From Gemmatimonadota bacterium (GTDB taxonomy: Bacteria; Gemmatimonadota; Gemmatimonadetes; Gemmatimonadales; Gemmatimonadaceae), in the NCBI GenBank assembly GCA_040389905.1, contig JAZJZK010000062.1, positions 1-26,825 on the forward strand: DNA of 26,825 bases, written 5' to 3'. The notes under the pieces were generated by a model, which saw only the letters and a list, made by a program, of their open reading frames with translations, made no database searches and had not been told where the DNA came from. Position 1 is the first letter of the stretch. Every line of letters starts with the position of its first letter. Positions 154 to 3,979 of the stretch are shown piece by piece. The position numbers and the translations under genes are program-made.

Positions 154-162
154 TTGACTGTT

Positions 163-249
163 GGATCGGTGGCCGAGTGGTTTAAGGCGCACGCCTGGAA
201 AGTGTGTGTACGTGAAAGCGTACCGTGAGTTCGAATCTCACCCGATCCG
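163..249 (+). tRNA. tRNA-Ser(GGA)
   Basis: Acceptor stem GGATCGG(163-169)/CCGATCC(242-248), G249, anticodon loop CT-GGA-AA (GGA 197-199), long variable arm, GTTCGAATC T-loop; CCA not encoded. Confidence 0.97.
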
Positions 250-303
250 TTGCAGAAGTACCCTCATTGTGTTGATCAACATAGGCTTAGCTCGCTCGCT
301 GTT

Positions 304-521: not shown

Positions 522-705
522 ACCGCAGAGGACCCAGAGGCCATGGGCACCCAGAGCAATCTACGATGCGCCGGACCGCAGAGGTCGCTGAGGACTACGA
601 GAACAGAACCAAACCCCCACCGCCGTTCCGCAGTCCTTTGCGCCCTCTGCGGTCCGGCGCATTGATGAAGGCACGGAAGGCCGAACCCTCTGCGTCCTCT
701 GCGGT
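522..705. repeat. Nested ACCGCAGAGG-type inverted-repeat elements (family A)
   Basis: Outer arms 522-540/687-705 are 18/19 complementary and inner arms 566-596/632-662 are 28/31; same motif as 26171-26306. Confidence 0.85.
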
Positions 706-1038
706 ACGCTTTGCTTTTGCTGTTCGGCAAGCGACAGGCGAGAGCAAACCCGAGGCACCTCGGGCGACGTTGGATCATCGGCCGTGCCATCGGAGAAATG
801 TTGGCCGGCGGAGCGCCACACCGCGAGCCGATACAGGAACGCGCCCAGAGACCAGAACCGTCCCGGCTCCCGCGCCGCGTAGGAGGGGCCAGCCTACAAG
901 CCCGGTTCCTCGCTGAGGACTGTCGTCCACGCGTGCTCATTCCAATTCTGGAATGAAGGGCTGTGGGAGGGTGATCGCGAGCGGCGGGGGGCCGGCTTGC
1001 GCGGGATCACGTCGCGACGCGGAGATGCGTCGGCCACG

Positions 1039-1918
1039 GGCGGGCCGTTATGCGGAAACGCCTCGACCCTCGAAGCCGGCACGGCAACGCTCAATTCGCG
1101 TTGTAGTGCGCTGCACAGTGCCGGGAGGACGATGTTTGACTGAGAAACGGTAGCCGACGGCCCACGGACGCCCGTGCGCATACAACGAACGGCCAAATCA
1201 CCTTCTCGAGCGACAGTGCAACGCGCACAGCCTCGTGTTGGCGGCGCGAGACTGACCGTTCCCAATAAGCGGCCGGCATGTCGCACTTCCCAACTACCCG
1301 TGGGCGAAGCACAGGGGCCAGGTTGCTCGCGCGAGACGACCATGCGCGACGATCACGTCGCCATTCCGAACGCGCGACTCGATGTTCGCGACGCACGACC
1401 ATGCTGGTCATGCATGCGGAGGACCGTTTTGGATGAATGACACGAGTGAATCTCCGGCAAGGGCTGCGTCTGTACGTCGCGAACGCGCTGTCTGCGCAGG
1501 CGAGACAGTGTCATCGTCGCGCGAGTCAACGATTCACAGTGATGATCGAATTACCCACGGTCGCGGCCGACTTCTCCGCGCACATGTTCACATTTCAGTT
1601 GCGAACGCTCTGATTTGCCGGGGGAAGGATGTCGTTTGCAATGCCCGAGTGCAGAATGCCGATGGCTGTGGCCACGTTGCCCCGTCGTCTGTCGCTTTTC
1701 GTCGCCTCCGTGCGCGCGTTGCGCGCGCGAATGCCAGCGTTTGCGGCGCGCGAGTTGTCCTTTCATATGAAAGTGCGCGATTCAGAACCGCTCGCGACGG
1801 GGTGCGCAGCGCCCGCGTCCACAATGCAACCGCCGGTGACGGCCTTGCCTCGCGAGGCATCGAGTTCTCCGGCGTGATGAATCACAATACGCAGTGCGCG
1901 CGTCATTTCACGCAGGGC
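1039..1918. repeat. Degenerate 21-nt-periodic tandem array (~42 units, possibly starting near 913)
   Basis: Cut by hand into 21-nt units (register 1039+21n to 1522, one 19-nt unit, then 1541+21n): T at unit position 11 in 31 of 42 units; conceptual heptads x-x-x-[VILF]-x-x-[AG]. Confidence 0.75.
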
Positions 1919-2299
1919 GGGCTCACCCCACGCGGAGCCAGTGAGAAAGTACCCGGACCGGCGGTGACGGTCCGCTGGTAGACATTCGGCTTCCGCAGTG
2001 GCCGCATCGCGTCACGTGAGCGCTGACTCGGCTCACCCGAACCGTGGCCCGCCGCACGACTTCGTACCGAGAGCTAACGCAGCCCCACACCTGCCTCACG
2101 CGTCCCGCCTGTCAGCACACCAAGGTGGCGCCCCGGGCCACCGGCTACGCACGCGGTGAAACCCAGTGCACCGGCGCCCGTACTCTCTTCTGCGACCATC
2201 GCACCACCTGCGCGCATCCAGCACGCCGGTCGCGCCCGACGTCGGGCTCTTCGTTCCGACCCGCGTGCCAGAGCTGACACGCCAAATCGGGAGCATGAC

Positions 2300-2968
2300 A
2301 TGGATGACCGAAAGAAGCGAGTGCTCGAATCCTGGAGGCGGATCGTCGGCAGCGGTGCATCACTGTCGACTCTCGCGCCGGAAGTTCCGGCCATCCTCGA
2401 GCGGCTCGCGAGCACCGTGGCAGAGATCGACATGTACAAGCAGCAGCAGTTCATGGCCCGAAAGCTCTTGCTTGTAACACACACGCGACGCGCCCTCGAC
2501 CGCATGCGCACGGAGCACATGCTCCCACTCGCTCGTCTCACACGTCCGCTCTTCGTGGGCATGAGCGGCATCGAAGCCGCGATCCGCGTTCCGCACAAGC
2601 GCGCTCCGACCGAAGAAATTCTCGCCGCCGCCGAGGCGATGGTGAAGGCACTGCGGCCACATCGGGAGCTGATTGCGAAGTCGAAGATCGATCCTACCCG
2701 TATCGATTGCATTCGCGATGAAACGCGACTCCTCAAGAAGCGCTTTCGGACGGCCTACGCCGCCTCCGCCGATCGCGGCGCGCCGACTCGACAATTGCCG
2801 GCCCTCTTTGCGTCAGCGCGGATGGATGTGGCCATGCTGGACGCGCTGGTCCGCGCAACGAGCGACGCCGCGCAAGTGTTCCTGTGGAAGCAGCTCTCCC
2901 GCGTACAGAAGCGCCTCGGTCGCCCGCGCCGTAAGCGTGGTACCAACAAGCGCGAGCAGGCCGCCTAG
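2300..2968 (+). CDS. Hypothetical alpha-helical, basic protein (222 aa)
   Basis: ATG 2300 preceded by GGGAG (2289-2293); GC3-biased codons; amphipathic helical sequence ending in KRLGRPRRKR. The longer ORF start at 2156 is judged spurious. Confidence 0.8.
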   Translation: MDDRKKRVLESWRRIVGSGASLSTLAPEVPAILERLASTVAEIDMYKQQQFMARKLLLVTHTRRALDRMRTEHMLPLARLTRPLFVGMSGIEAAIRVPHKRAPTEEILAAAEAMVKALRPHRELIAKSKIDPTRIDCIRDETRLLKKRFRTAYAASADRGAPTRQLPALFASARMDVAMLDALVRATSDAAQVFLWKQLSRVQKRLGRPRRKRGTNKREQAA

Positions 2969-3187
2969 AACTGTCGCGACTCGCAACCGCGGCCACTGTG
3001 ACCGACTCCGTTCGCCCTGGCGTCGTGGCTCACGCGATGGTAGCCTGTCGCCGCCGGCCATGCCCGAACTCGCGTGAGGAGACGCGTGGATCGACCGCGT
3101 CGAGCTCATGGTGCCGAGGTCGGACAAGCGGCCTGACCAGCCTGGCAATTAGACTACGGCGAGCGACCTCCATCCGATCCGTGAACT

Positions 3188-3979
3188 GTGAGTTTTCTCG
3201 AAGGTATTGACCGGCCGGTCGTCGCCCACCGCGGCAACCGCGCACACGCGCCCGAGAACACCATCGAAGCGTTCGAGCGGGCCTTGACCCTCGGACCCGA
3301 TGCGTTGGAGTTCGACGTGCGCCTCTCGCGCGACGGCGTGGCGATGGTCATTCACGACGCTACCGTCGATCGAACGACCAGCGGCGCGGGCGCCGTCGCC
3401 TCGCTGTCGCGCCAGGAACTTCAGTCCTTCGACGCGGGCTGGTCGCACCGCTCCCCGGACGGCGAGCAGAGATTCCGCGAGACAGGCGTCACGATCCCCA
3501 CGCTGGAAGCAACACTCGAAGCCCTCGGCCACGTTCCACTCATCATCGAGGTCAAGGAAGAACGAGCCGTCGCGGAAACAAAGCGCCTGTTGGCGCGTTT
3601 CAACCTGACGGCACGTGTGCTCATCGGGTCGGTGCACCGAAATGTCATGCAGCACTTCTACGGCGGTCCGTACGAGACGTGTGCGTCGATGAAGGATGCG
3701 GCGCTGCTGCTCACTCGCATCGGGTGGCGCCGGACACGGTCACGGCCGCCGTTTTCCGTGCTCTCCATCACGCCGTGGTACGAGGCCGCGGTTCCGTTCC
3801 CCGTGCCTGTCGTCACCCTGTCGCGCATCGCCGCGGACCTCGGCATTCCGACGCACGTGTGGACGATCAACGACCCCGTGCAGGCGAGTCGTCTGTGGCG
3901 CGCCGGGATCTCCGCGATCCTGTCGGACGACATTGAGCCGATCATGCAGGCGCGTGCGGCGGCAGAACGAACGCGCTAG
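3188..3979 (+). CDS. Glycerophosphodiester phosphodiesterase (GDPD, UgpQ/GlpQ family), no signal peptide
   Basis: AHRG...PENT...LEFDV...DG...IHD...DRTT and IEVK motifs, HVWTIN near the C-terminus. Confidence 0.92.
   Translation: MSFLEGIDRPVVAHRGNRAHAPENTIEAFERALTLGPDALEFDVRLSRDGVAMVIHDATVDRTTSGAGAVASLSRQELQSFDAGWSHRSPDGEQRFRETGVTIPTLEATLEALGHVPLIIEVKEERAVAETKRLLARFNLTARVLIGSVHRNVMQHFYGGPYETCASMKDAALLLTRIGWRRTRSRPPFSVLSITPWYEAAVPFPVPVVTLSRIAADLGIPTHVWTINDPVQASRLWRAGISAILSDDIEPIMQARAAAERTR

Follow-up and report, generated by a model that had tools for sequence, protein, structure and literature searches.

The stretch of DNA analyzed here (the window, 26,825 nt from a member of the Gemmatimonadota) contains, upstream of a gene for an orphan protein, a degenerate array that maintains a period of 21 bp, evolves as non-coding DNA and is paired with the same gene family at other loci. 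The array presents a two-block layout, in which distal and proximal units are built on different cores, its landmarks are spaced by whole units, and the two boxes of a predicted promoter fall in register with those units. Comparative sequence analysis establishes the tract as a non-coding DNA array, and it is very probably a selected cis-element of the downstream gene. An initial annotation had recognized a cryptic 21-nt tandem array at positions 1039–1918 and had judged rightly that standard annotation would miss it (Tandem Repeats Finder returned nothing at the tract among its 13 rows). Its placement of the array end at 1918 did not hold, as a further block, the third, is built on another core and reaches approximately 2205; this block, the link of the array to the downstream gene and the promoter embedded in the tract at 2157–2182 had all been overlooked. 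The features of the locus are as follows.

162..250, + strand: tRNA-Ser(GGA), predicted with ARAGORN; left boundary of a variable 3.8-kb stretch with the cassette, and not part of the cassette
1039..1540, + strand: block A, distal and the most degenerate of the three, made of 24 21-bp units with T at position 11
1541..1918, + strand: block B, distal-type, 18 units with core N-T-T at positions 10–12
1760..1773, no strand: AT-rich 14-bp palindrome CTTTCATATGAAAG, filling one unit
1844..1859, no strand: dyad element TTGCCTCGCGAGGCA of the junction, close to where TT-cored units give way to AC-cored ones
1919..2205, + strand: block C, proximal, about 14 units with core (Y)CAC(G) and near-invariant AC; the end is approximate
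2157..2182, + strand: predicted ECF-sigma promoter TGAAAC-N16-CGTA, both boxes ending on the invariant AC
2289..2293, + strand: likely ribosome-binding site GGGAG, 6 nt ahead of the start codon ATG (2300)
2300..2968, + strand: gene encoding an orphan protein of 222 aa, basic and all-helical, its start fixed by homolog alignment

Period and layout of the array

Autocorrelation of positions 1039–1918 against 300 dinucleotide shuffles yielded z scores of 6.0, 6.3, and 6.5 at lags of 21, 42, and 63 (95th percentile of the null maximum, 3.0), bearing out the 21-nt period on which the initial annotation was based. With the same method no 21-nt signal was found at 300–1039, and lag 21 was still apparent (z 4.6) at 1918–2300. 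The hand count of T at unit position 11 was reproduced exactly (16/24 units in the register starting at 1039 and 15/18 in that starting at 1541), with binomial p-values of 3e-5 and 5e-7, respectively, after correction for 84 choices of phase and base. The 2-nt register slip that offsets block A from block B is present, as are the plus-strand stops described at 1141, 1438, and 1447; both minus-strand stops exist as well, but they begin at 1784 and 1553, the reported 1782 and 1551 lying in the same codons. Positions 616–3100 agree with 0 differences and 0 gaps with a contig of run X1, which may be the source sample, and a contig from X2, another sample of the same study, covers 1499–1649, including the slip, with 0 differences. 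Since both contigs are identical to the tract over the positions they cover, an assembly error, which the initial annotation had advised checking for, is ruled out.

Fourier analysis places a peak at 21.0 in block A. Peaks at 7.0 are also seen in the window, but a 7-nt sub-repeat was rejected on the basis of 39 pooled arrays, in which lag 7 has a z of 1.3, and these peaks are read as a harmonic of the 21-nt period. In the pooled arrays, no lag is prominent unless it is divisible by 21, there is no component at 3, 7, or 10.5 nt, and their downstream controls do carry a codon signal. A length of 21 bp corresponds to two turns of B-DNA, and the cores of the array hence face one side of the helix.

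The blocks were scored with profiles trained on nine other loci, leaving the window out. Block B attains 48 bits (z 13.8) under the distal TT profile, and positions 1919–2225 attain 48.7 bits (z 11.1) under the proximal AC profile; within block C, 14 phased positions were compared and 12 of them read AC (p 8e-10). Block A scores negatively under both ortholog-trained profiles, yet it lies above shuffled sequence (z 5.2 for the distal profile and 5.7 for the inverted proximal one). The TT cores of distal units and the AC cores of proximal units are strand-specific, and the distal-then-proximal order recurs in 10 of 11 other loci scanned, the eleventh being of the distal type only.

Two landmarks punctuate the array ahead of the promoter. 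The palindrome CTTTCATATGAAAG is identical in locus L018 and its 8-nt core is shared by L035 and by the paralogous locus on contig C14 of the source genome; no AT-rich palindrome counterpart was found in L038, and in a sister clade a similar position is taken by another AT-rich element. The junction element TTGCCTCGCGAGGCA is matched, exactly or nearly so, at 12 of the 14 subfamily loci, and its exact 12-mer occurs only twice in the 5.08-Mb genome, in the window and at the C14 paralog, both of this subfamily. Distances from junction to promoter (310, 437, 457, 395, and 458 bp) equal 14–21 units plus 16 or 17, a whole-unit spacing with p ~1e-4 among loci that are kin and not independent, and the AT-rich pocket lies 85, 85, 171, and 148 from the junction. 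Landmark spacing varies by whole units only.

Non-coding evolution of the array

A substitution test was carried out on six alignable orthologous arrays with 61–87% DNA identity and few indels. These arrays belong to the sister clade, with 41–44% protein identity to the window gene, so that the test addresses that clade and not the window's own array. Mismatch frequencies at the three codon positions are 0.29/0.28/0.34, 0.25/0.27/0.29, and 0.26/0.29/0.28 in the array blocks, versus 0.11/0.05/0.29 in the gene, and the synonymous fraction ranges from 0.19 to 0.36 across the six array frames, versus 0.72 in the gene. The search for codon-like substitutions that the initial annotation had proposed uncovered no such pattern in any frame of the six arrays, which speaks against reading the tract as heptad peptides or a pseudogene. 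Furthermore, the orthologous arrays are interrupted by stops in each of the six frames and contain 1-nt indels, some of them compensated within 40–90 nt, and 3-nt periodicity is absent from the 39 pooled arrays. Conservation is instead confined to 2 of 21 positions per unit in the six orthologs, namely proximal A (98%) and C (97%), and distal TT. Two earlier observations stand: phase is maintained without an intact ORF, with stops in all six frames of the array, and the usage of NTT codons clashes with host codon bias. Tracts of this kind yield spurious heptad ORFs, of which annotators should be wary.

Association with a gene family

A whole-genome scan of the source genome picked out 31 segments in which the 21-bp signal is in excess (z > 4). 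Seven family genes were detected in this genome with an iterated profile, seeded in part with these loci. All seven, including an internally deleted copy on C14, have an array upstream (best-window z 6.4–15.7; null 99th percentile, 5.2), and no downstream array was seen at any of them. Among closer homologs, the strongest lag upstream of the gene is divisible by 21 at 32 of the 34 loci, a set that comprises several near-duplicates and leaves out one unpublished locus. Across the phylum, the family is present in 52 of 251 genomes, with up to 10 copies each. Analysis of 28 phylum loci (30 fetched, minus the window and an unpublished one), 27 of them with enough flank, revealed upstream arrays in 24/27, versus 0/24 downstream and 1/24 in pyrR controls, and periods of 19, 20, 22, and 23 did not exceed a z of 2.9 in those loci. 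None of the conclusions depends on the unpublished genomes G012 and G123.

The array consensus varies by subfamily on a constant period, and different cores coexist within one genome. The correlation of array consensus with protein similarity is weak (rho 0.27, 561 pairs of 34 loci) and shared descent alone could suffice to generate it. Flanking genes are unlike from locus to locus, leaving the helical-protein gene as the sole constant partner of the array.

Several loci of the source genome deserve separate mention. The second copy of the subfamily (C14:138690–140010, minus strand) has a full array with the three landmarks and the promoter, and its gene lacks approximately residues 9–160 through an in-frame deletion; an ECF sigma gene lies ~1.2 kb from this copy. 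Copies of the C6/C12 arrays are also found at C7:484829–485484, C53:64550–65348, and C12:182255–183026 (85, 87, and 100% identity), with no family gene within 2.5 kb. Other strong 21-bp arrays without a family gene nearby occur at C7:211801–213101, C8:229101–230101, C53:67601, and C41:32801, and the one on C8 lies upstream of a gene that by eye resembles a phage tail-collar protein. On C12, a decayed 5' fragment of the gene itself lies between array and gene. Repeated AT-rich motifs similar to the DnaA-box consensus also sit between array and gene at C12:194950–195480 and C6:117760–117970; such 9-mers were dropped as a cassette feature, given that they appear in only 1 of 28 phylum loci.

Predicted promoters within and beyond the array

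Upstream of the gene, the window contains a TGAAAC box and a CGTA box separated by 16 nt, the spacing of sigma-W-type ECF promoters. Both boxes end on the array AC, and they are therefore two consecutive units of the array. The exact motif is also present in three other independent loci (L018, L038, and L035), with a one-mismatch copy at C14, and has 5 matches genome-wide; the relaxed form TGAAAC-N16-CGT[AC] shows no genome-wide enrichment (14 matches, versus 9–24 for other spacers). We infer from the motif at 2157–2182 a putatively working ECF promoter. TGAAAC and CGTA are the sigma-W boxes reported in Bacillus subtilis (PMC5758882). The predicted promoter shares these -35 and -10 elements, here conserved among orthologs, with the sigma-W-type promoters described in that work, but differs from them in that it is embedded in a 1.2-kb phased array and shares its register (PMC5758882).

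The sister clade has no ECF motif and retains TGGTATGAT, a TGnTATGAT element, ~115 nt upstream, while sigma-54-like or sigma-70-like promoters are seen in other clades. With a -24/-12 scoring based on the sigma-54 consensus, sigma-54-like boxes with at least 10 of 12 matches were detected in 11 of 47 family loci, versus 0.36 expected. No such boxes were found at the window locus, where the best matches are 6/12 in the 450 nt upstream and 8/12 on the + strand of 901–2300. A scan with the sigma-70 consensus returned 0 sites. In sigma-54 loci, the array ends some 1–5 units before the -24 box (15 loci), and the region just upstream of this box is the usual place of activator sites. At loci L075–L100, the sigma-54-like promoters lie ~90–150 nt upstream of the gene, with a -12 box that often reads TCGC for TTGC. 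The fact that promoter type differs by clade while the array stays indicates that the array is not tied to one sigma factor. A single sigma factor, or its activator, is hence an unlikely reader of the array, and the same comparison shows that a sigma-54 enhancer is not what the array generally represents.

The downstream protein

The orphan gene has close homologs in Gemmatimonadaceae or Gemmatimonadetes records, and its family comprises 788 representatives at E ≤ 1e-3. The protein has a net charge of +23, equal to the median of aligned family members, and its AlphaFold model (pLDDT 94.5, pTM 0.77) consists entirely of long helices without any strand. Residues R70, P98, W196, G207, R208, and P209 are nearly invariant, and the C-terminal end carries a W-x8-R-x-G-R-P tail. 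Of 105 aligned members, selected with a profile that itself contains the GRP motif, 101 have GRP within their last 45 residues; paralogs in the source genome are only 22–24% identical to the window protein, and five distant ones have no GRP and have arrays nonetheless.

Sequence searches of Pfam, PADLOC, and PDB with the protein produced no convincing match, and Foldseek searches of PDB and viral models produced none at E ≤ 1e-3. The best VIA-align match is LemA (2etd; Z 9.7, rmsd 3.0, 119 aligned), in a range that is common for helical bundles. Neither a recognizable DNA-binding fold nor a nuclease or recombinase was found in fold and family searches, and there is no RHH or HTH protein among the matches listed. 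ESM Atlas neighbors are unnamed clusters (0.96–0.97), most commonly from Bacteroidota and Myxococcota; DUF6261, at 0.88, is to be taken as a lead only. The NCBIfam family PQLLE (NF052641; model cut-off, 80 bits) matches 2 of 105 relatives, with a best E of 2.7e-6, and has no match in the window protein (P0001) or elsewhere in the source genome, making the protein at most a distant relative of PQLLE.

AT-hooks are described as R-G-R-P motifs (PMC4466236). The minor-groove binders HMG-I(Y), H-NS, and Lsr2 treated in that source combine, as the protein described here seems to, a basic G-R-P tail with an oligomer-like helical body, and the TT cores lying in GC-rich DNA extend the likeness (PMC4466236). 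The protein departs from this precedent in a tail that reads R-x-G-R-P instead of the canonical R-G-R-P, in its unrelated fold and in the absence of the motif from distant paralogs (PMC4466236).

A self-coating model and its alternatives

In the model that we tentatively favor, and to which the sequence evidence lends somewhat less than an even chance, the array is a track along which the product of its own gene polymerizes, covering the promoter and repressing itself. The basic helical protein, presumed to oligomerize, would advance along its array one step per two helical turns, with the basic, AT-hook-like GRP tail presumably touching the short TT or AC core of each unit. The polymer would then cover the promoter embedded in the array, so that the gene would repress its own production, and the gene-less array copies elsewhere in the genome would act as extra binding sites. 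Self-coating offers the simplest reading because only phase and a dinucleotide are kept while unit number is free, because the sole constant partner of the array is a basic helical protein and because, in this clade, the promoter boxes are themselves array units. The model may be likened to ParG on parH (PMC3130281), dispensing with the partition ATPase. The self-repression component is not singled out by the sigma-54 loci, where the array ends just before the -24 box, an arrangement that fits activation and repression equally.

An unlikely alternative is that the array serves as a landing or enhancer track for a host activator or for the RNA polymerase holoenzyme, which would read the units as weak -35/-10 pairs, with the protein as regulated output. 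The coincidence of the ECF -35 and -10 boxes with two adjacent units, the resemblance of the proximal core to their AAC/TAC ends, the halting of the array just upstream of the promoter in sigma-54 loci and the 41 sigma-region-4 matches in the genome are all in line with this proposal. A host reader does not readily account, however, for a single 21-bp period combined with three promoter types and different cores in one genome, and the distal TT block is unlike promoter boxes.

The patchy and multi-copy distribution of the cassette among unrelated neighbors, the variable site beside tRNA-Ser, empty in relatives, and the gene-less array copies at 85–87% identity would suit a mobile or selfish cassette, with the array as a cis site for its movement, packaging or protection by the protein or another enzyme. 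This we deem rather improbable, in that terminal inverted repeats did not exceed shuffles at any of 10 loci, direct-repeat scores were at best marginal, and in two instances only (p 0.03–0.05), no duplicated tRNA end was found at the window locus, the protein matches no nuclease or recombinase, and the paralogs of the source genome are so divergent from it. A role of the array as RNA, transcribed from an upstream promoter and bound by the protein at the repeated cores of the transcript, would make sense of strand-specific cores and a basic protein, but appears quite improbable: no block shows a folding signal relative to shuffles (z -0.3, +1.2, and +0.5), 21 bp matches two turns of B-DNA, and a transcript starting from the conserved promoter, which is located where the array ends on its downstream side, would omit most of the array. 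Lastly, a decayed heptad-repeat or coiled-coil gene, or neutral slippage debris, is barely plausible and already largely refuted, for although a 21-nt repeat lets heptads be read in any frame and one + frame has no stop between 1256 and 1981 (ORF 1382–1981), the codon pattern is missing, stops and 1-nt indels are present as described above, the NTT frame is broken by stops in L018, L038, L021, and C14, the third position of that codon is T in ~75% of cases in a GC-rich genome, and phase and landmarks persist across loci at 40–60% protein divergence, which neutral decay would not allow.

Returning to self-coating, a broader version posits a widespread two-part system, in which a new family of basic helical proteins reads DNA by spacing in preference to long sequence and forms subfamily-specific filaments on its own 21-bp arrays, complete with a nucleation dyad, two differently cored arms and different promoter types captured in each clade. 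Such a system is possible, if on the doubtful side; it would account for the puzzling 21-nt repeats of constant size discussed below, known from bacteria, and would turn gene-less copies into remote assembly sites. The locus offers a candidate reader and a small self-contained cassette, and it leads to precise predictions (a footprint of 21 bp, insertions tolerated when they add a whole unit but not half of one, and the embedded promoter as a read-out) that together make the question of the 21-nt repeats directly testable. Should the protein read the array, the subfamilies would constitute orthogonal protein–array pairs for DNA building or gene repression.

Relation to known repeats

Tandem repeats of constant size (20–21 nt) and variable sequence were found with a repeat finder in Bacillus and described as having unknown function, and their authors suggested a protein polymerizing on the repeat DNA (PMC8161180). 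Repeats of this type are therefore already known, without an assigned reader, and stand as a published open question (PMC8161180). The array has the three defining features for which it was tested, namely a fixed 20–21-nt unit of variable sequence, a non-coding nature and a short conserved motif in each unit, here TT or AC, and resembles them further in its 21-nt step and in the existence of several families per genome (PMC8161180). It differs in having units too degenerate for Tandem Repeats Finder, two blocks, landmarks, a promoter and association with a single gene family, and the words "upstream" and "intergenic" are absent from the main text of that report (PMC8161180). No description of the array-plus-gene cassette was found in the literature searched, which consisted of papers available without subscription, and neither the link to a gene family nor the two-block layout, the whole-unit spacing or the in-register promoter was met there.

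Similar centromere/operator arrays are those of R1 and pSK41 parC with ParR. In TP228, parH likewise consists of short degenerate boxes at fixed spacing and in elastic number, cooperatively coated by ParG, the product of a nearby gene, whereas the array described here has a period of 21 bp over ~55 units, is chromosomal and is paired with a protein predicted to be a helical bundle instead of a ribbon-helix-helix (PMC3130281). For the partition ATPase, three PF13614 matches were obtained in the source genome, none of them near the seven family loci. The BrickBuilt MITE of Porphyromonas gingivalis is also an intergenic, multi-copy array with units of about two helical turns, and has promoter activity, but it is composed of near-identical 23-nt units with inverted-repeat ends, as opposed to degenerate units with a fixed partner gene (PMC4596501). 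A CRISPR array was considered and rejected, as no Rfam CRISPR model matches at gathering score and the units share only 2–4 nt; Cas1 was not found in the source genome, which is 85% complete.

Genomic setting

The window contains, in order, two tRNA-Ser genes, a palindromic element, the array, the 222-aa gene, a GDPD gene and pyrR-pyrB-pyrC, the latter names having been assigned by reading the window ORFs. The two tRNAs are the only Rfam matches above gathering score. The GDPD gene (PF03009), at 3188–3979, lies inside the variable stretch; 54 genomes of the genus gave no match to it at 1e-30, for which reason pyrR was used for synteny. Among 26 of 30 genus loci (setting aside the window, two short loci and one unpublished locus), five have the two tRNA-Ser genes no more than 1.5 kb from pyrR, with a distance of only ~40–100 nt in three. 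This proximity in relatives identifies the 3.8 kb that separate them in the window as a variable stretch. In another genome, locus L061 carries at this site, ~500 nt ahead of pyrR, a 21-bp array with GT cores that by eye looks like an inverted proximal type; the 1.4 kb covered there contain no family gene. The element at 516–725 is a palindromic REP/MITE-like sequence with inverted arms at 566–599 and 629–662 (88%), which is matched by many other run X1 contigs and has full-length copies, at 78–94% identity, on at least seven other contigs.
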